Assembly (NCBI GenBank): GCA_034658935.1
Contig: JAYEGE010000008.1
Coordinates: 3,400 to 67,399 of the forward strand
DNA: 64,000 nt
Direction: 5' to 3'
Origin: Patescibacteria group bacterium
GTDB taxonomy: Bacteria; Patescibacteriota; Minisyncoccia; Phycocordibacterales; JACOZG01
In this document: piece by piece, positions 15,544-58,022 of the stretch
Position numbering within the stretch: the first letter of the stretch is position 1
Layout: the number at the start of each line of letters is the position of its first letter
The notes under the pieces: model-generated
Databases searched by the model: none
What the model was told of the DNA's origin: nothing
The model's input: only the letters and a program-made list of their open reading frames with translations
Made by a program: the position numbers and the translations under genes

Positions 15544-16090
15544 GGCTTGGTGCCGGGCAATTAATCCAATGTTTGGCGTTGGGTAGGAAAGTCCGGACAC
15601 AGCGATTCCTTTATTTAATAAGGGATGGGAATGGTAGCGGCTCCGATGCTCCATAGGGAACTATAGAGTTCGGAGCTCCGACCCTCGATGTAATATCGGG
15701 GCGTCGGAGGTAACGCCCGTCCTCCGATGGACATCGGAGAGGGATGCGAGCAGAGACGTCGAGGGCGAGAGCCTAAGACCCCTTCAGGGTGATGCTCATG
15801 GAGACGTGAGCTTGAAACGGCAAAATTCCTACCTCTGTGCAAGGTCGTGCCCAGCACCACTTTCAGAAAAGTGGTGCTGGGAGTGCCGCTATAGGCGATT
15901 GGCGACAATCGTCACAGATAAATGATTGCCACCAATTTTGTTCACCACAAGTGAGTACAAAATTGAGTGCTCCGACTTTACGTCGGAGTTAAACCCCGAC
16001 GACCTGTCGGTATCGGGGTACTCGATTTTGCGTCCACCTGCGGTGGGCAAAATCGGCACAGAATCCGGCTTATGAGCACCAAGCCACCAA
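15544..16090 (+). ncRNA. rnpB: RNase P RNA (bacterial type), unusually long, about 545 nt
   Basis: Contains AGGAAAGTCCGG (P4 5' strand), ATAGGG and ACAGAATCCGGCTTAT (P4 3' strand). The P1 stem pairs ggcttggtgc (15544-15553) with gcaccaagcc (16076-16085). A terminator hairpin lies at about 16107-16135. Confidence 0.7.
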
Positions 16091-19844: not shown

Positions 19845-20222
19845 ATGAGGAAATTTCAAACAAGGAATTGGGGCAGGCGGATAATCTACTCCAAGTGGGC
19901 AGTGGCCGTGTTAATCGTCCTCGTGCTTCTATTACTCCGCTCGGTTATCTTAACCTGGCAACGTGAGCGCTTGGCGGGAGATGGATTGACGGAGGTTAGG
20001 GAACAGGTGGCGGCTTTGGAGGTGCGTAAGGAGCAATTGGCTGCCGATTTGGCCTTGCTCGAAACTGAGCGCGGGGTAGAAGAACGCATCCGCCGTCAAT
20101 TTGCAGTTGCCAAGGAGGGGGAGAAGGTAATGACGGTGGTTTTGCCAGACCGCCCAGCAGATTCTGCTGCTCCCTCAGCCATTTTGCCCTGGTGGCAGCC
20201 GCTATTAGACTTGTTTGATTAA
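19845..20222 (+). CDS. FtsB/DivIC-like septum formation initiator (TM plus coiled coil)
   Basis: N-terminal TM helix followed by the coiled coil LEVRKEQLAADLALLETERGVEERIRRQFAVAKEGEKVMTV. Confidence 0.5.
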   Translation: MRKFQTRNWGRRIIYSKWAVAVLIVLVLLLLRSVILTWQRERLAGDGLTEVREQVAALEVRKEQLAADLALLETERGVEERIRRQFAVAKEGEKVMTVVLPDRPADSAAPSAILPWWQPLLDLFD

Positions 20223-20321
20223 GGTTAGAGTTTTTGTATGATTGCGGCGGGCCTTGCCTCGCCGTAGCCGCGAGGTAGATTTGGCGAAGCCCGACTTCGC
20301 TAGAGCTACGTCGTGGCGAAG

Positions 20322-20392
20322 GCGGGTATAGTTTAGTGGTAGAACACGACCTTCCCAAGGTTGAAACGGGGGTTCGATTCCCCCTACCCGCA
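20322..20392 (+). tRNA. tRNA-Gly (anticodon CCC)
   Basis: Manually folded cloverleaf: acceptor gcgggta/tacccgc, anticodon loop ttCCCaa, T-loop ggttcgattcc. No encoded CCA. Confidence 0.8.
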
Positions 20393-20477
20393 CTTTTGTT
20401 GAGAAAAGAAAAAGCCCCCCTGATCCGCTGTAGCGAATCGGGAGGGCGTCGAGGTTTAAGTGCCTCTGTGTCTGTGA

Positions 20478-20852
20478 AGGTTAGTCCCGCCTCTTCGGCG
20501 TACCCATACGTTTTCTACTGCTTCGATAGGGTGGCACTCAGTTACCTACGGCGATGGCCTCTTTGTAGCGGTGGCATATGATGGCACCAATAGCGCGATG
20601 ACTTCACCTGACGGCATTACTTGGACAGCTCGTGCGACCGCGGAAGTAAATTTTTGGTACAGTGTTACCTACGGCAATGGCACCTTCGTGGCAACGGCTG
20701 GTTCTGGCACCAACCGTGTCATGACCTCAGGAAAAGCCGATCTCTACGACAATCCACACGATAATATCTACCAAGGTGGTATGTCCATCATGGGCGGTAA
20801 CGTCGGCATGGGAACAACCACTGACATTCCACGAGGCTCAACCTCGTGGTAA
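20478..20852 (+). pseudogene. 5'-truncated fragment of a repeat protein (WxSVTYGNGxFVA tandem repeats)
   Basis: The open frame starts right after a stop, with no ATG or RBS. It contains GWHSVTYGDGLFVAVAYDG...ITWTARATAEVNFWYSVTYGNGTFVATAGSG. The ORF track gives it a GTG start at 20571. It sits between tRNA-Gly and the IS-like element. Confidence 0.4.
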
Positions 20853-21583
20853 GATAGGGTTATGTCTAGGCAGATTGAGTTCTCGGTTGACGAATTTTAT
20901 CATCTCTATAATCGCGGTAATGATAAACGCGATATTTTTTTAAGCTCGGCCGACAGGCGTCGCTTTACTGCTTTATTATATCTCTCCAACTCTTGCCACT
21001 CCTTCCACTTCGAGGAACTAAAAAATGCCCCATTTGATTTTGATCGTGGGGCGGCTCTGGTCGATATCGGGGCCTATTGTTTAATGACCAACCATTACCA
21101 CTTGTTAGTCCGAGAACGTCAAGAAAATGGTATCAGTCAATTTATGCATCGTCTGTCCACTGGCTACACCATGTATTTTAACAAGAGGTGGCAACGTCGC
21201 GGTTCGTTATTCGAAGGTCGTTTCCGCGCCAACCATGCCGGTGAGGACAGGTACCTTCATTATTTATTTGCCTATATTCATCTTAATCCGGTCAAAATGA
21301 TTCAAGCGGATTGGCGGGTGATTGGTTTGAAAGACAAAGCATCGGCCAAAGATTTTCTCGGCCAATATTTATACTCGAGTTATCAAGATTGTCTTGGTTT
21401 GAAGCGTGAGAGTGGCAAACTGCTTGCTCGAGAGGCTTTTCCTGACTATTTCTCCGAATCGAATGAGTTTGATAGTTTTTTATCTGATTGGTTGAATTAC
21501 CATGACCACGAGGTTGAGCCTCGTGGGGAGAGGGGGCTAAAGTGACTTGACCTTTTAAGATTCCACGAGGCTCAACCTCGTGG
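20829..21583 (+). mobile_element. IS200/IS605-like mini-element 1 (Y1/HUH transposase gene bounded by palindrome ccacgagg-ctcaa-cctcgtgg)
   Basis: Identical hairpins at 20829-20849 and 21563-21583, both within the direct repeat attccacgaggctcaacctcgtggt(a/t)aag. An inverted copy lies at 21506-21526. Total length 755 bp. Confidence 0.65.
20862..21545 (+). CDS. Y1 HUH transposase (IS200-like / RAYT-like)
   Basis: CLMTNHYHLLV (HUH motif) and YLFAYIHLNPVK (catalytic Tyr motif). Length 227 aa. Paralogous to 43120.. and 57321.. Confidence 0.7.
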   Translation: MSRQIEFSVDEFYHLYNRGNDKRDIFLSSADRRRFTALLYLSNSCHSFHFEELKNAPFDFDRGAALVDIGAYCLMTNHYHLLVRERQENGISQFMHRLSTGYTMYFNKRWQRRGSLFEGRFRANHAGEDRYLHYLFAYIHLNPVKMIQADWRVIGLKDKASAKDFLGQYLYSSYQDCLGLKRESGKLLAREAFPDYFSESNEFDSFLSDWLNYHDHEVEPRGERGLK

Positions 21584-21635
21584 TTAAGCTTGTCGGGCTT
21601 CCATTCCCGGCCAAAGATTAGTAGCATTTTAGTAA

Positions 21636-21923
21636 ATGGCTATTGATTTTATTAAAAAACAGGAGGATTTTACTTGTGAGCATTGTGGAGTGCTGGTGGA
21701 GGGAAGTGGTTATACTAATCATTGTCCTCATTGCCTATGGTCTAAGCATGTTGATATAAATCCCGGGGACAGGGCGGCTGATTGTGGTGGCTTGATGCCG
21801 CCTGTGGGCTATGAATCTGAAGATGGCACCTACACTCTGACTCATCGTTGCGAAACTTGTGGTCATGAGAAGCGTAATAAGGTGTCGTCGGGAGACGATC
21901 TCGCTCTGCTTGCCGGGCTATGA
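21636..21923 (+). CDS. small zinc-ribbon protein, RNHCP-domain-like
   Basis: CEHCGVLVEGSGYTNHCPHCLWSKHVD...CETCGH. The TNHCPHC motif and four Cys pairs support the call. Confidence 0.45.
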   Translation: MAIDFIKKQEDFTCEHCGVLVEGSGYTNHCPHCLWSKHVDINPGDRAADCGGLMPPVGYESEDGTYTLTHRCETCGHEKRNKVSSGDDLALLAGL

Positions 21924-21937
21924 TATGATTTTAGTCT

Positions 21938-22189
21938 ATGGCAAAACAAGTAACAATTTATAGTACTCCTGCCTGCGGCTATTGCCGCATGGCTAAGGAG
22001 TTTTTTAAAGAAGAAAATATCGAATATACCGAGTACGATGTTCAAGCCGACCCCAGTAAGGCTCAAGAGATGATTAAGAAATCGGGCCAGATGGGCGTGC
22101 CGGTAATCGTTGTTTCTGGGGAGGGGAGTGAGGAGCAGATGTTTGTTGGCTTCGATCGACAGGCTCTAAGCGAGGCGCTTGGTATATAG
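21938..22189 (+). CDS. glutaredoxin-like protein
   Basis: VTIYSTPACGYCRMAKEFF shows a CxxC thioredoxin fold. Length 83 aa. Confidence 0.75.
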   Translation: MAKQVTIYSTPACGYCRMAKEFFKEENIEYTEYDVQADPSKAQEMIKKSGQMGVPVIVVSGEGSEEQMFVGFDRQALSEALGI

Positions 22190-22224
22190 TTTATCCGCCC
22201 AAATGCGAAGCTTTTGGCAGGGCG

Positions 22225-22444
22225 GTTTGCTTGCCCTCGTAGCCCCGACGCCTTTGCATAGGGGTCGGGGTCCCGACTGAAGCAAGGCGAACGTCGGGAT
22301 TCAATGATAGACTTTGTGCGAAGTGGTTTGCTTGCCCTCGTAGCCCCGACGCCCTTGCATAGGGGTCGGGGTCCCGACTGAAGCAAGGCGAACGTCGGGA
22401 TTCAATGATAGACTTTGTGCGAAGTGGTTTGCTTGCCCTCGTAG
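22225..22444 (+). repeat. 101-bp tandem repeat (2.2 copies) whose 5' 18 bp equals the first 10 nt of tRNA-Arg plus its 8-nt leader
   Basis: Unit starts at 22225, 22326 and 22427, so the period is 101 bp. Each unit has two hairpins with cccgac/gtcggg stems. Confidence 0.8.
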
Positions 22445-22506
22445 TTCAATGGATAGAACGGCCCCCTCCTAAGGGGCAGATGCAGGTTCGACTCCTGCCG
22501 AGGGCA
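22435..22506 (+). tRNA. tRNA-Arg (anticodon CCT)
   Basis: Manual fold: acceptor gccctcg/cgagggc, anticodon loop ctCCTaa, T-loop ggttcgactcc. Confidence 0.8.
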
Positions 22507-22665
22507 AAAAATAAAAGAGACTTATGCGTATGTATGAGGCGACTGTTATTTTTTAGCCCTCGGCAGGAGTCGGGGTCGAGAGTACTTAGATTTTTGCGAA
22601 TGCCTGGAGTAAAAAGCTTAGTAACTCGTGACCGACTCCCCCTCCTCCACCCTATTTTATATACT

Positions 22666-22694
22666 TGACAAAAAGGCTAGTGTATGCTAGTATA
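22666..22694 (+). promoter_or_regulatory. possible promoter TTGACA-N17-TAGTAT
   Basis: Consensus -35. The -10 hexamer is weak. Confidence 0.3.
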
Positions 22695-22771
22695 CTAGCA
22701 GTTCTTCGAAATCGGCAATTGACTGCGGTTGATTGCCACTTTTACTCTTTTTTCCAGGGAGGAAAAATATC

Positions 22772-23458
22772 ATGTTGCCGAATCCTTTTCCGGTAGTGTT
22801 GGAGTTCGAGGTCGCAAGGAACGCGAACCACAGGGCAAGGGGGGCAAAGCAAATTGCCGCCTTTGGCCGCAATGGGGACAAATTTGTCTCTGATCGTGAC
22901 GGCAGACACCAGCCTCGTGCTGGTGAGACCTGGTTGTGTCGAGCGCACACCCAGATCGGGCGGATCAAGCGCCGGGGTCATCGAGACGGGCGTCTCATCC
23001 TCGTTGTCTTGGAGGCACGGTTGACGGCCAAGACCAAAACCCTCGTCTTCTCATACGATGAGGACGAGTGGGTGCGTCTCGGCGCGGTGAAGGATGATTG
23101 TTTTCATCGGATATCTGATGTCACGCCGCCTTTTTGGAGGCGCGCGGGCGAGTTTGTCTGCCGAGCGGTGCTTGACCTAGAAGGCTGTGGTGACGATGAA
23201 GAGCCCCAGCCTCGGCGTATTGGCTTCGACGAGGAGAATCGGCCGATCTTCCTCGTCGTCCCTGAACGCCCCTCAGAGGAGGAGGCCCGAATATTGTGGG
23301 CGGCTAGGGTGGCGAAGAGTAATGAGCCGCATCGGCAAGCTCGTCTGAGGGCAGTGAAGGATCGCATCCCCGTGGAGGACGCGGTAGCGAGGATTTGCCT
23401 CGGTGGCAGCCTCTTCAACGGAGTTATTACGGCAGGGCCCGAAACCAAATCAGCCTAA
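22772..23458 (+). CDS. GC-rich, Arg-rich orphan hypothetical protein
   Basis: ATG at 22772 has a GGGAGG RBS. No recognisable domain. GC content is clearly above the flanks. Confidence 0.4.
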   Translation: MLPNPFPVVLEFEVARNANHRARGAKQIAAFGRNGDKFVSDRDGRHQPRAGETWLCRAHTQIGRIKRRGHRDGRLILVVLEARLTAKTKTLVFSYDEDEWVRLGAVKDDCFHRISDVTPPFWRRAGEFVCRAVLDLEGCGDDEEPQPRRIGFDEENRPIFLVVPERPSEEEARILWAARVAKSNEPHRQARLRAVKDRIPVEDAVARICLGGSLFNGVITAGPETKSA

Positions 23459-23479
23459 AGGGGGTGATCGCATCTAGTG

Positions 23480-23535
23480 CCCCCGTGAGACCCCGTCTGT
23501 AAAAAGACGGATTATCTCACGGGGGTTTCTTTGCG
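23480..23535 (+). terminator. rho-independent terminator (nested hairpin cccccgtgaga...tctcacggggg followed by a T-run)
   Basis: Inverted repeat followed by TTTCTTTG. Confidence 0.55.
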
Positions 23536-23552
23536 TCTAATTTTGTTATAAG

Positions 23553-23849
23553 ATGAACCACATGAGTCCGGAGGAGAAGAAGTTGCTTGAAGAGGCAGTT
23601 GGTCTATCACGCGAAAATAATAAGATGCTCCATCGCTTGCAGAGTGCCATGCGTTGGGGTCGTTTCTATTCCATCCTTAAGTGGGTCATTATTGTCGGCT
23701 TCACTTTTGGAGTCTATTATTATCTCCAGCCGTATTTGATTGGCCTTATTGATGCCTACCAAGCCGTGTCAGAAGGATTAGATGAGGTTAGGGAGGCGGG
23801 GAGTAATCTACCCGACTTCTCTGGTTTGCTTGATAGATTCGGTCAATAA
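23553..23849 (+). CDS. small hypothetical membrane protein
   Basis: One TM helix (WVIIVGFTFGVYYYL). Confidence 0.4.
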   Translation: MNHMSPEEKKLLEEAVGLSRENNKMLHRLQSAMRWGRFYSILKWVIIVGFTFGVYYYLQPYLIGLIDAYQAVSEGLDEVREAGSNLPDFSGLLDRFGQ

Positions 23850-23862
23850 GTAACAAAGCCTC

Positions 23863-24126
23863 ATGGCCTATGTCTATATTCTTCGCTGCGATGGCAATCG
23901 TTATTATGTGGGCAGTGCAGTTGATTTACAAAAGAGGCTTAAACATCATGATAGAGGTCTAACTCCCTCGACAAAAAGATTAGGAAATTGCCACTTGGTT
24001 TTGTCTCAAGAGTACGAAACCTTGATTGATGCTAGATTAGTGGAGGGTAAAATTAAGAAGTTGAAAAGAAAAGATTACATCGCTAGAATGGTAAAAGATG
24101 GCGTAATCAAAGTAATGCCTCGGTAG
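23863..24126 (+). CDS. GIY-YIG nuclease family protein (small stand-alone)
   Basis: MAYVYILRCDGNRYYVGSAVDLQKRLKHHDRG shows the GIY-YIG motifs. Its 3' end overlaps tRNA-Phe by 10 nt. Confidence 0.75.
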   Translation: MAYVYILRCDGNRYYVGSAVDLQKRLKHHDRGLTPSTKRLGNCHLVLSQEYETLIDARLVEGKIKKLKRKDYIARMVKDGVIKVMPR

Positions 24127-24188
24127 CTCAGTGGTAGAGCGCCTGCCTGAAGAGCAGGGCGTCGGTGGTTCAATTCCGCCCCGAGGCA
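24117..24188 (+). tRNA. tRNA-Phe (anticodon GAA)
   Basis: Manual fold: acceptor gcctcgg/ccgaggc, anticodon loop ctGAAga (G37 is atypical for Phe), T-loop ggttcaattcc. Confidence 0.7.
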
Positions 24189-24189
24189 C

Positions 24190-24352
24190 ACTCGTACTTA
24201 CTTGGTAGCTTGTCCCGACCGGTTTGCGTGCGTCGGGAAGCGCCTGCCCCCGACGTTTCAGTCGGGGCGGAGCTGAAGAGCAGGGCGTCGGTGGTTCCCC
24301 GCCCGACACGCAAGACGAGCTTGCGAGTCGTTGCGGGCGGGAATTCCGCCCC
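24190..24352 (+). repeat. degenerate tRNA-Phe-like copy (anticodon arm through 3' end plus CCA) interrupted by three small GC-rich hairpins
   Basis: agcgcctgc[ccccgacgtttcagtcggggcggag]ctgaagagcagggcgtcggtggttc[44-nt hairpin]aattccgccccgaggcacca. The D-arm region is replaced by the hairpin tcccgac...gtcggga. Confidence 0.6.
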
Positions 24353-24466
24353 GAGGCACCACTTGTATCCCCGTCTTACTATTTACTTCTCAGCTATAGT
24401 TTGTTATAATCCTTTTAGTATTAGATGGTAGGTCTATGTCTCTTGGCAGGAATAGGGAGTTTAGTT

Positions 24467-24676
24467 ATGGCAGGAAATGAACAGCCAAAGAAAGACGGTG
24501 GAGTGCTTGGCAATGTTCAAGTGTTTAATCGGTTCACCCCCAGAGGTCCCGGTCCCGAAAGGCTTGAGTACGGCGTGCAACTTCTTCCTGATGGTGGGGT
24601 CGGCGTCTTTATCGGCGGAAATTTGGTCAGTAGAGATGATCTCCTAAAGATCGCCGGCGCGGTCGAAAGGTGCTGA
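24467..24676 (+). CDS. hypothetical small protein
   Basis: ORF only, with no support beyond its length. The ORF track starts it at 24425. Confidence 0.3.
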   Translation: MAGNEQPKKDGGVLGNVQVFNRFTPRGPGPERLEYGVQLLPDGGVGVFIGGNLVSRDDLLKIAGAVERC

Positions 24677-39676: not shown

Positions 39677-39720
39677 TCCTCGCCACGACGTGGTTTTAAC
39701 GAAGTCGAGACGAGTCATTG

Positions 39721-39745
39721 TCAAGGTCGGACCTTGCCACGGGCG
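39721..39745. repeat. solitary degenerate copy of the element-3 terminal palindrome (tgtcaaggtcggaccttgccacg)
   Basis: Matches cactgtcaaggtc(c/g)gaccttgacagtg of 57229-57255 and 57996-58022, with a mutated 3' arm. Confidence 0.55.
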
Positions 39746-43071: not shown

Positions 43072-43825
43072 TGTGCAACACTTAGTGTTGCACAAATGAG
43101 CTGAGCTTACTAAACTGTAGTGGATATGCGTCGGATCAAAATCAGTCCAGGAGAATGTTACCATCTTTATAATAGAGGCAATAATAAGCAGAACATATTC
43201 CGTGATAATCGTGATCGAGCCCGCCTCCTCTTCCTTTTGATAGGTTTGCAATCCGAACTATCTTTCAAAAATATCAGTCGATTAGTTTCAGCTTTAACTA
43301 AAAGACCAAAACTTATCTTGAATGCTCGAGTTGTCTCTGAGGTTAGTGCAGCTCGTTACGTTGATCTAATTAGTTTTGTCTTAATGCCCAACCATTTTCA
43401 TTTAATTGTTTTTGAACGCAAAGAAGGTGGTATTGCTAAATACATGCAACGAGCGCTCAACGCCTATACAAAATATTTTAATACTCGGTATAAAAAAATG
43501 GGCATGTATTTGGGGGGACATACCAAGCCGTTCATATCGAAGACAATGATCAGCTTCTTTATGCTTCTGCCTATCTCCACAGAAATGCTCACCAATTACC
43601 AGTTTGGACTGGTCGCTCGGCGGAGTATCCTTGGTCAAGTTATAGTGATTACGTCGGAAATAATCGGTGGGGGGAGCTTTTAAACCGGCGAATGATTATG
43701 GAACAATTTGTCGACGGTAACGAATACCGACAGTGGGTTGAGACCAGTAGTGCCAAGGACCAAGATTGGGAATTTCAAGAGGGGAACTAAATTGTGCAAC
43801 ACTGTGCAACACTTAGTGTTGCACA
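43072..43825 (+). mobile_element. IS200/IS605-like mini-element 2 (palindrome tgtgcaacac-tta-gtgttgcaca at both ends)
   Basis: Hairpins at 43072-43094 and 43803-43825, plus an extra half-copy at 43793-43802. Total length 754 bp. Confidence 0.65.
43120..43790 (+). pseudogene. Y1 HUH transposase paralog, frameshifted
   Basis: The N-terminal part (CYHLYNRGNNKQNIF...LMPNHFHLIV) is in one frame. The C-terminal part (...LLYASAYLHRNAHQLPVWTGRSAEYPWSSY...) is in another. The switch falls at the A7/G6 homopolymers around 43500-43520. Confidence 0.6.
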
Positions 43826-57228: not shown

Positions 57229-58022
57229 CACTGTCAAGGTCCGACCTTGACAGTGAAGTTATCCCCCTAAAACAGGGGGTATATCTTTGGCAAGGTCCGA
57301 CCTTGGGGTAGAATTGACCAATGACTAGGAGGTTTAAGTTTGCTCCTGGAGAGTATTACCATATTTATAATCGAGGCAATGATCGCCGCAGTATTTTCCT
57401 ATCTGGCAAAGACCGTGATCGCTTTCTCGCTCTGCTTTACGTTTGCAATAGTGGCGAGGTTCTCCATCTGAGTGATTACCCCCAAACCTCCCTGCTGAAA
57501 TTGCTGAGTCTGCCTAGGTCTTCAGTATTGGCAGATATCGGTGCCTATTGTTTGATGCCAAACCATTTCCACTTATTGGTACGGGAGAACGAGGAGGGTG
57601 GCATTAGCCGCTTGATGCAGAAATTACTGACTGCTTACACCATGTATTTTAATCGTAAGCATCAACACACCGGCTCTTTGTTTGAGGGTCGCTTTCGAGC
57701 CAGACACGTTAGCGACGATCGACATTTGCAGTATCTCTTCGCCTATATTCATCTCAATCCTGTTAAGGTTAGAGACCCTGACAATTGGGAGAAAAAAACT
57801 ATTCTCGATACGGATGAAGCGGTACGTTTTTTGAATACCTACCCGTACTCTAGTTTTCTCGATTATCTCGGTCGGAATAGGGGAGAGGGGGCAATCATAA
57901 ACCCGTCGGCTTTCCCAGAGTATTTTTCGGTGCCGTCTGATTTCTCCGATTTTGTACAGGATTGGATGAGTTTTGACGAAGAGGAGGATCTCACCACTGT
58001 CAAGGTCGGACCTTGACAGTGA
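57229..58022 (+). mobile_element. IS200/IS605-like mini-element 3 (palindrome cactgtcaaggtc-c/g-gaccttgacagtg at both ends)
   Basis: Hairpins at 57229-57255 and 57996-58022 lie within 40-bp direct repeats. An extra partial hairpin is at 57291-57305. Total length 794 bp. Confidence 0.65.
57321..58016 (+). CDS. Y1 HUH transposase (IS200-like / RAYT-like)
   Basis: CLMPNHFHLLV (HUH motif) and YLFAYIHLNPVK (Tyr motif). Length 231 aa. About 60% similar to the 20862 copy. Confidence 0.7.
   Translation: MTRRFKFAPGEYYHIYNRGNDRRSIFLSGKDRDRFLALLYVCNSGEVLHLSDYPQTSLLKLLSLPRSSVLADIGAYCLMPNHFHLLVRENEEGGISRLMQKLLTAYTMYFNRKHQHTGSLFEGRFRARHVSDDRHLQYLFAYIHLNPVKVRDPDNWEKKTILDTDEAVRFLNTYPYSSFLDYLGRNRGEGAIINPSAFPEYFSVPSDFSDFVQDWMSFDEEEDLTTVKVGP

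Follow-up and report, generated by a model that had tools for sequence, protein, structure and literature searches.

Why should an intact tRNA gene have repeated copies of its own 5' end upstream and, downstream, its 3' end once more in inverted form? The question is raised by the tRNA-Arg(CCT) gene in a 64,000-nucleotide stretch of a Patescibacteria group bacterium (assembly GCA_034658935.1, contig JAYEGE010000008.1, positions 3,400 to 67,399 of the forward strand), which is called the window here and in which all coordinates are counted from the first letter. Genomes of the Patescibacteria, or candidate phyla radiation (CPR), are highly reduced, yet their rRNA and tRNA genes are known to accommodate introns and insertions. 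In this case the tRNA-Arg(CCT) gene is intact, and its surroundings are best read as mobile-element debris of a sort typical of Parcubacteria tRNA loci. Taken alone, the locus would be 'scar tissue' round an intact gene; it exposes two families, a two-hairpin element that occurs in frame in protein genes and a module that follows tRNA 3' ends, and also a stereotyped composite of a tRNA and a GIY-YIG nuclease gene. Both families are apparently undescribed, since no description of either in CPR was found in the literature searched. The parts of the gene and its 5' side are as follows.

22434-22507, plus strand: intact tRNA-Arg(CCT) gene (ARAGORN; Rfam RF00005 at 22435-22506, 70.9 bits).
22224-22324, plus strand: tandem unit 1, 101 bp (Tandem Repeats Finder, alignment and sequence).
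22325-22425, plus strand: tandem unit 2, 101 bp, equal to unit 1 except for C22354 in place of T22253.
22426-22444, plus strand: third, partial copy, consisting of the leader and nt 1-10 of the real tRNA-Arg.
22243-22299, plus strand: two-hairpin element, copy 1, 57 nt, between G10 and T11 (first hairpin, HP1, 22243-22270; second hairpin, HP2, 22271-22299).
22344-22400, plus strand: two-hairpin element, copy 2, 57 nt (HP1 22344-22371; HP2 22372-22400).
22300-22312 in unit 1 and 22401-22413 in unit 2, plus strand: D-arm remnant TTCAATGATAGAC, equal to tRNA nt 11-23 less one G (direct reading against the tRNA sequence; 7-mer matches).

Tandem Repeats Finder describes 22224-22444 as 2.2 copies of period 101 with 99% matches and a score of 435, which bears out what a first-pass annotation of the window had reported, and T22253 versus C22354 is the sole difference between the two full units. 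All the features reported there are present, far above what chance would give, and one set of coordinates needs correction. Each unit starts with a 9-nt leader, GGTTTGCTT, and GCCCTCGTAG (tRNA nt 1-10), after which come two hairpins with 7-bp stems, CCCCGAC-N14-GTCGGGG and TCCCGAC-N15-GTCGGGA. Apart from the leader, there given as 8 nt, that much had been recognised correctly; it had been overlooked that past the hairpins the unit resumes with TTCAATGATAGA, tRNA nt 11-23 minus one G, followed by 12 nt. The hairpins are bracketed by tRNA nt 1-10 and nt 11-23, and therefore the 57 nt form a clean insertion at G10|T11. Read in this way, the 101-bp unit is a truncated 5' copy of the tRNA-Arg gene, from the leader to nt 23, split by a 57-nt element. 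The pattern CCCGAC-N(4-30)-GTCGGG occurs six times in the window (0.07 expected), and all six matches lie at the tRNA-Arg and tRNA-Phe loci, in agreement with the earlier view that the hairpins share a family with those at other tRNAs.

Folding of a single unit yields the two hairpins with z = -1.8, which is not exceptional against shuffled sequences, and neither ARAGORN nor Rfam calls a tRNA in the units, their call being confined to 22434-22507. A pseudo-tRNA, for which the annotation had proposed a folding check, is thus ruled out. A known RNA family or ribozyme is likewise ruled out at permissive Rfam thresholds: with Rfam 15 at E up to 10 across 22150-22780, only the tRNA and generic long-hairpin noise (microRNA matches) were returned. 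A group I intron is ruled out as well; the inserts here are 20-57 nt, and the tRNA introns known from Patescibacteria lie in the anticodon loop, including a new site at 35/36, in a study that makes no mention of features such as these (PMC13011429).

That an assembler created or mis-sized the tandem duplication is very improbable. Short reads do resolve 101-bp repeats poorly, and in an independent short-read (Logan) assembly of SRR26901924, the only sequencing run with this organism and one whose contigs break at repeats, contig L081 (window ~20354-22253) ends inside unit 1. Contig L082 (window ~22606-24201) starts inside hairpin C of the module 3' of the tRNA and ends 12 nt after tRNA-Phe. 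Against an artefact, the diagnostic junction between tRNA nt 10 and the hairpin, GTAG|CCCCGAC, is reproduced in a Logan contig and is therefore real in the reads, one single-nucleotide difference separates the two units, whose junction reads …GCGAAGTGGTTTGCTTGCCCTCGTAGCCCCGAC…, and a like architecture is present in many unrelated assemblies. The Logan breaks fall at three element boundaries, which fits repeated or heterogeneous sequence at those places. The contig end in unit 1 lies exactly 31 nt past the last base by which upstream and unit context can be told apart; were the Logan k-mer length 31, this would hint at a number of units above two or at a mixed population.

The two hairpins together make up an insertion element that is independent of the tRNA and widespread, and the earlier proposal that the hairpins belong to a tRNA-derived leader did not hold. 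The family was defined by a pattern scan of metagenome contigs, in which at least 120 contigs, the majority of them from groundwater or sediment, matched with a single copy apiece; these yield 115 non-redundant copies among the matches listed, to which the following counts refer. Full stems (8 bp in HP1, 7 bp in HP2) are present in 100 of the 115. The copies range from 42 to 57 nt with modes at 42 and 45 nt, and their length is a multiple of three in 80/115 (70%, against 33% expected). No flanking repeat, and hence no target duplication, accompanies 77/115, and the 5' flank has the consensus T-N-A-R|, with A at -2 in 76/115 and a purine at -1 in 95/115. The median GC content of the carrying contigs is 0.43; eight high-GC contigs among them may be chance matches. 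Long open reading frames (ORFs) contain 59 of 117 copies, and the hosts are housekeeping genes for IF-2, UvrA (three contigs, two sites), DnaK, PurL and DnaE, which the element enters in frame. Compared with E. coli DnaK (PDB code: 1dkg), the element is a pure 14-residue insertion, PRRPDGVGVPTEAS, in a surface loop.

The two-hairpin design is also found in two other Paceibacteria metagenome-assembled genomes (MAGs), L033 and L042, the former with a copy directly 3' of the lepA stop codon and no adjoining tRNA fragment. Copy density is low, about one per several hundred kb in the loci examined. A phage origin is ruled out, as zero copies were found among 2.9 million viral contigs. Overall, the element is a small selfish palindromic DNA that persists where it is harmless. 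Two unrelated contigs, L086 and L154, carry it at the identical UvrA site, before KNIY(D/E)VL, and L105 carries it at a different UvrA site; the pattern points either to ancient insertions passed on by descent or to repeated insertion at one place.

Rickettsia palindromic elements (RPEs) and the GC clusters of yeast mitochondria are short, hairpin-forming selfish elements, and the present element resembles them in being hairpin-forming selfish DNA in a small genome less GC-rich than itself, in its in-frame presence in conserved protein genes and its presence in RNA genes, in little or no target duplication, and in surviving lengths that are compatible with translation. As with RPEs, it forms an extra loop relative to homologous proteins. 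The element differs in its size (42-57 nt versus ~100-150 nt in RPEs), in its fixed two-hairpin design with CCCGAC/GTCGGG stems and low copy number, in its G10|N11 site in tRNA fragments and linkage to GIY-YIG/tRNA cassettes, and in its hosts, which are Parcubacteria MAGs and unlabelled groundwater and sediment contigs. The resemblance to RPEs is thus offered as an analogy in behaviour only.

Hairpins with similar CCGAC/GTCGG stems occur in the window's RNase P RNA (bacterial class A; 15545-16088, plus strand), namely CTCCGAC-TTTAC-GTCGGAG at 15970-15988 and ACCCCGA...TCGGGGT at 15993-16019. This RNA is expanded, with 544 nt for a model of 367 positions; it scores 57.5 bits (E = 6e-17) against a gathering score of 100, and it is therefore missed at the Rfam default threshold.

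In tRNA fragments the preferred site of the element is precise to a single nucleotide. Position G10|N11 of a 5' fragment is occupied at the window's tRNA-Arg and in fragments of tRNA-Phe (L042 and L148), tRNA-Ile (L122), tRNA-Lys (L166), tRNA-Asp (L097) and tRNA-Thr (L181), and both orientations are represented. The downstream intact tRNA provides the 'empty site' for each, so the insertion is seen to be exact, and all seven filled/empty comparisons are clean. The tetranucleotide 5' of the insertion is GTAG in five of these seven fragments including that of the window, ATAG in L042 and TTAG in L181. Other sites in tRNA fragments are nt 12/13 (L025 Gly, L178 Ile) and nt 15/16 (three tRNA-Thr contigs).

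The comparison of the tRNA-Arg locus across related genomes, proposed in the first-pass annotation, gave different results for its two sides. The 5' unit was found at one of 59 tRNA-Arg(CCT) loci and is absent from the 58 others; therefore it is no conserved leader, and it is a lineage-specific event. Components of the 3' module are present at 11 of 57 such loci, in some lineages and not in others. The annotation had also suggested a structured leader or trailer RNA. In its full form, this explanation places both the repeats and the inverted copy in the precursor of tRNA-Arg, where they would control how it folds, how it is processed or how stable it is; the inverted copy might, for instance, keep the 3' strand of the acceptor and T-arm sequestered until processing. 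On the 5' side, a promoter scan found no promoter inside the units and no promoter-like site between them and tRNA-Arg, so the units are probably in the precursor, as this explanation would have it. The restriction to 1/59 loci, the unexceptional fold of the single unit and the identity of its hairpins with an element that also lies within protein genes speak against a regulatory leader.

Composites of a tRNA fragment and a hairpin insertion are, in relatives, a regular companion of GIY-YIG genes. These genes encode 87-90 aa and abut an intact tRNA: ten of 13 lie -7 to +48 nt upstream of a tRNA on the same strand, a 5' tRNA fragment stands upstream of the ORF in eight of these ten, and every one of the eight fragments contains a GC-rich hairpin insertion. 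Within the window this arrangement is found at tRNA-Phe.

23858-24359, plus strand: tRNA-Phe cassette locus (alignment; Pfam GIY-YIG 1.1e-11; reconstruction 64/64).
23858-23862 (nt 1-5) and 24204-24359 (nt 6 to the 3' end), plus strand: older tRNA-Phe.
23863-24203, plus strand: 341-nt cassette that interrupts the older tRNA-Phe between nt 5 and 6.
23863-24126, plus strand: GIY-YIG ORF (Pfam GIY-YIG 1.1e-11).
24117-24189, plus strand: functional tRNA-Phe, overlapping the 3' end of the GIY-YIG ORF and followed by 14 nt.
24211-24238, 24249-24273 and 24298-24341, plus strand: hairpin insertions in the older tRNA-Phe.

The sequence GCCTC, nt 1-5 of tRNA-Phe, stands directly before the GIY-YIG start codon, and the older tRNA-Phe resumes exactly at nt 6, 14 nt past the functional gene. 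Its retained segments are identical to the functional gene at 64 of 64 positions, with no point substitutions, and it ends in an encoded CCA, which the functional tRNA-Phe does not have. The GIY-YIG protein (87 aa) consists of a catalytic domain standing alone, which is of the UPF0213/YhbQ type. A displaced copy about a GIY-YIG cassette is thus found at the window's tRNA-Phe and not at its tRNA-Arg; four other composites, in L178, L097, L181 and L148, also have no ORF.

Free-standing GIY-YIG homing endonuclease genes, such as those of the phage T4 Seg type, are similar in that a small nuclease gene lies inside a conserved host gene, of which a functional copy is re-established and an incomplete, displaced copy persists. 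They differ from the present case, in which the protein is an 87-aa catalytic domain without a DNA-binding domain and the tRNA-Arg locus itself has no nuclease gene. The displaced part here is the 5' end, and the insert measures 0.1-0.35 kb, not several kb as in integrated elements. Partial tRNA genes beside intact ones are a known signature of insertion, and such partial copies are a known source of errors in tRNA annotation (PMC9897764). At two tRNA-Thr loci (L145 and L151) and a tRNA-Ile locus (L122), the acceptor stem of the displaced fragment differs from that of the intact tRNA that follows the GIY-YIG gene, for example GCCGGGG in the fragment versus GCCGCCT in the intact tRNA. This mismatch suggests that the cassette brought a foreign tRNA allele, rather than plainly duplicating the resident one.

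A possible order of events at tRNA-Arg can be described as follows. Initially, an insertion of DNA into the D-arm region would have duplicated the 5' part of the gene, from the leader to about nt 23; in relatives the displaced 5' fragments usually precede a GIY-YIG gene and an intact tRNA, and here no ORF is left. Subsequently, the 57-nt two-hairpin element may have entered the redundant fragment precisely at G10|T11; its family survives only where harmless, as an in-frame loop in a protein, in an RNA gene that tolerates expansion or in a dead tRNA fragment. Finally, unequal crossover or slippage between the 19-nt repeats (leader plus nt 1-10) would have given the second unit, 99% identical to the first; an unequal crossover most simply accounts for the tandem copy. 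The earlier idea of insertion or recombination at the tRNA is retained in this scheme, and its 'aborted' character is not needed, as the element is precisely inserted. Hypothetically, the hairpin insertion might shield the displaced fragment from a homing nuclease or mark the repair of a break.

Downstream of the gene, the following features were identified.

22550-22572, plus strand: inverted copy (INV) of the tRNA 3' end and trailer (23-nt arms, which take in the adjoining A-run and T-run, 96% complementary to 22489-22511).
22556-22572, plus strand: INV core, GCCCTCG·GCAGG·AGTCG (gccctcggcaggagtcg) (inverted-repeat arms).
22572-22633, plus strand: hairpin C, GGGGTCGAGAG ... A-CTCGTGACC (basal stem 22574-22582 with 22625-22633; distal stem variable).
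22633-22651, plus strand: decayed direct copy (DIR) of the tRNA 3' end, CGACTCCCCCTCCTCCACC (from the sequence).

The inverted copy that the first-pass annotation described does exist, at 22556-22572 rather than 22549-22565, and its core begins 49 nt, not 43 nt, after the discriminator base. The core joins the 5' strands of the acceptor stem and of the T stem to the reverse complement of a portion of the T-loop. The acceptor and T stems are self-complementary, and therefore an inverted copy equals their 5' strands; the complementarity also reaches the T-loop and trailer, which makes this a true inversion. In the predicted minimum-energy fold, INV pairs with the tRNA 3' end. The resulting hairpin is not an intrinsic terminator, as its loop is 38 nt, it has no U-run and the stem is followed by GGGGTCG; a terminator scan likewise found none at 22489-22572. 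A retrovirus-like primer-binding site was also rejected, because the complementarity enters the A-run of the trailer and not a CCA. Only CGACTCC of DIR matches tRNA-Arg, and the rest is unrelated C-rich sequence; counted manually, 10/19 positions agree with the Arg 3' end and 15/19 with the 3' end of the window's tRNA-Gly(CCC).

INV belongs to a conserved module that flanks tRNA 3' ends; it forms the left arm of the window's copy, which is a reduced one. Among 171 tRNAs, comprising those of the window and of lepA-anchored loci, a direct copy of the last 16 nt lies 50-185 nt downstream in 24 (25 were counted, one of which is an end-of-contig artefact), and shuffled probes gave one; partial tRNA copies of some kind are nearby in 32 of the 171. 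Components of the module occur at 36 of 209 tRNAs (~17%) at all the Parcubacteria loci examined. The usual order is tRNA, terminator-like hairpin, INV, hairpin B, then hairpin C or a short hairpin, and DIR. INV is often split by hairpin A, with a conserved loop RAACTGCTTY; hairpin C has the form GGGGTCGNGAG...A-CTCGTGACC, and its alternative, the short hairpin D, has a GTA triloop. In relatives, 16-19 nt at the DIR position repeat the 3' end of the cognate tRNA exactly, starting in the T-loop. The window module is reduced: INV is fused directly to hairpin C, hairpins A and B are missing and DIR is decayed. The loop of hairpin A was discarded as a marker, since the motif is too short and its 52/209 matches are barely above the estimated chance level. 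On the preferred reading, the 3' module seems to mirror what happened on the 5' side, in that an insertion in the T-loop supplied a replacement 3' end and displaced the old one.

Tandem arrays of the module were observed in L065 (12420-12700), where two units bounded by copies of the tRNA 3' end follow a tRNA-Gly, and in L010 (12423-12560), where one unit is followed by the beginning of another. Two different tRNAs of L010 share a near-identical hairpin B that is unlike the one at the orthologous tRNA in L007, which suggests exchange of modules within the genome. L038 contains a perfect palindrome, one arm of which (~35 bp) consists of the tRNA 3' end and its terminator and the other of the same sequence inverted.

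Replication errors without any mobile element could produce both sides of the locus, with slippage giving the tandem unit and a fold-back template switch, placed at the trailer hairpin and returning via the palindromic TCGA of the T-loop, giving INV and DIR. The order A - trailer hairpin - A' - A is what two such switches should yield; at many loci, the axis of the palindrome is in the trailer or terminator, and boundaries fall in the T-loop. This explanation is nevertheless quite improbable: hairpins A-D with their conserved loops recur between INV and DIR across tRNAs and genomes, and the modules are therefore homologous units rather than independent errors, and the two-hairpin element is clearly an independent family.

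Hairpin C bears on the possibility of a functional RNA. Its motif lies 47-123 nt past a same-strand tRNA in 7/8 matches. Across 11 modules, 85.5% of cells are paired, compared with 31-44% when the partners are slid; seven pairs show compensatory changes, and one G·U pair is invariant in 11/11. Covariation together with the invariant G·U therefore points to a structure on the tRNA strand, and a trailer as the first-pass annotation suggested is possible, whereas the leader did not stand. The regulatory leader-and-trailer explanation gains from this strand-specific structure, from the constant co-orientation of modules with their tRNA and from the region as a whole, which folds far better than shuffled sequences (z = -6.4) with the predicted pairing of the tRNA 3' end and INV. 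It loses from the hairpin resembling an intrinsic terminator that relatives usually have between tRNA and module, and from the state of the window's own module, without hairpins A and B and with a decayed direct copy. As an account of this locus it is therefore unlikely.

The full module can also fold as a mimic of the acceptor/T-arm half of a tRNA. Transfer-RNA-like 'top-half' mimics are represented by the tRNA-like domain of tmRNA and by bacterial Y-RNA-like RNAs. As in these, INV and DIR could pair to give an acceptor stem on a T stem with a discriminator base, and one hairpin would replace the D/anticodon domain. Unlike these, the stems of the module copy the neighbouring tRNA of any identity, a long insertion takes the place of the T-loop, the module always stands directly after its cognate tRNA, and it has no Rfam match; across eight module-bearing loci, Rfam returned tRNAs only. 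With its direct copy decayed, the window's module is unable to form the acceptor stem.

Integrase-type recombination, by which small circles carrying a tRNA 5' or 3' end would have integrated, twice in tandem upstream, in the manner of genomic islands at attachment (att) sites, is improbable. Direct repeats of a tRNA end that flank inserted DNA are the classic att arrangement (PMC9897764). The 3' direct copies start in the T-loop, and L065 and L010 contain tandem arrays. Williams in 2002 reportedly described the T-loop as a sublocation of crossover in tRNA genes. However, the inserts are only ~80-200 nt and have no ORF, no integrase is encoded within 2.5 kb on either side, the repeat upstream is 19 nt and partly leader, double-stranded circles of ~100 bp are physically implausible, and elsewhere the hairpin element lacks target duplication in most copies, as given above. 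The duplicated part upstream is the 5' end, repeated at 101-bp spacing, which is not the usual footprint of an integrase att site, as had been remarked from the outset.

Several points weigh against the view that the surroundings of tRNA-Arg are debris of mobile elements. The tandem copy number of 2.2 comes from a single assembly. No GIY-YIG ORF or recognisable remnant was found between the Arg fragments and the tRNA-Arg gene, so that a link of this locus to GIY-YIG cassettes would be by analogy only, and no DNA-binding domain was found in the 87-aa GIY-YIG protein. The conserved loops and invariant G·U of hairpin C suggest that the 3' module may be a functional RNA. In each lineage the inverted copy matches its cognate tRNA, which fits a simple insertion model only with extra assumptions, such as co-evolution or palindrome correction. 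Y1/RAYT-like transposases (RAYT, REP-associated tyrosine transposase; REP, repetitive extragenic palindromic element) are unlikely to be the mobiliser of the element, because each Y1 gene has its own flanking palindromes.

A broader scheme, possible though doubtful, is an undescribed selfish system of three parts that targets tRNA genes in Parcubacteria and probably in other CPR, made up of a GIY-YIG cassette, an element tied to it and the RNA of the 3' module. In the first part, a cassette with the catalytic domain only would invade a tRNA gene and bring along a substitute for the tRNA or for one of its ends. At G10|N11 of the displaced fragment, the element, functionally tied to the cassette, would then, for example, destroy the old target of the nuclease or heal breaks, so that the two might have roles in homing and immunity, and the same activity would scatter copies of the element in frame through housekeeping genes. 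As the third part, the 3' module would be a novel structured RNA, associated with tRNA genes and imitating the acceptor/T-arm half of the neighbouring tRNA.

The findings add a further layer to what reduced genomes tolerate, namely a tiny palindromic element within essential proteins (DnaK, UvrA, IF-2, DnaE), together with nuclease cassettes and modules at the flanks of tRNA genes, by which incomplete tRNA copies are left. A candidate new structured RNA linked to tRNA genes is seen in the 3' module. With many insertion sites, seven of which have an uninterrupted copy of the same tRNA alongside, the element is a tractable case of selfish DNA in minimal genomes. In practice, assemblies break at such features, as the Logan contigs did, RNA genes such as the window's RNase P RNA are lengthened, and peptide loops are added to marker proteins.

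A neighbouring Y1 transposase as the partner of the hairpins, on the model of REP and RAYT, was considered and rejected, since each of the three Y1 genes in the window has distinct palindromes.

20829-21583: Y1 (IS200/RAYT-like) transposase gene, with its own palindrome CCACGAGG-N5-CCTCGTGG.
43129-43813: Y1 transposase gene, with its own palindrome TGTGCAACAC-TTA-GTGTTGCACA.
57321-57986: Y1 transposase gene, with its own palindrome CACTGTCAAGGTCNGACCTTGACAGTG.

The three genes are mutually diverged, and their flanking palindromes are unrelated to the CCCGAC element. Y1 genes in the relatives L041, L060 and L068 likewise have their own palindromes, and no CCCGAC-type palindrome was found beside any Y1 gene with detectable flanking palindromes. 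Scores of 37.5 and 51.2 bits place Y1 proteins below the NCBIfam REP_Tyr_transpos cutoff of 80 bits. A scan of nine ORFs lying in 19845-24676 turned up no recombinase domain other than the Y1 transposase at 20862. The Y1 copy at 43129-43769 is returned as two BLAST segments overlapping by ~20 nt and may be frameshifted.

GTAG is the conserved tetranucleotide of REPs in E. coli. REPs and their REPIN-RAYT systems, as well as elements derived from IS200/IS605, are similar to the present element in being small palindromes with no target duplication and a preferred 5' sequence, to which the GTAG before the element in five of the seven G10|N11 fragments and the presence of Y1 genes in the window may be added; insertion 3' of a short sequence without target duplication, as in the IS200/IS605 type, is what the element shows. 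REPs are extragenic, whereas about half of the copies here lie inside genes (59/117, as above), and unlike in REPIN-RAYT systems, the Y1 genes are flanked by palindromes unrelated to the element, which is not beside them. A solitary palindrome, TGTCAAGGTCGGACCTTGCCA, at ~39715-39745 (plus strand), 3' of tRNA-Ser(CGA), closely resembles those of the Y1 gene at 57321-57986; it may represent a REP-like copy that was dispersed to the side of a tRNA.

Upstream of tRNA-Gly(CCC), at 20230-20321 (plus strand), a GC-rich, hairpin-prone leader (…gcggcgggccttgcctcgccgtagccgcgaggtag…gcgaagcccgacttcgc…) stands directly before the tRNA. It holds a CCCGAC word and GTAG motifs, and it could be another decayed composite of a tRNA fragment and a hairpin.

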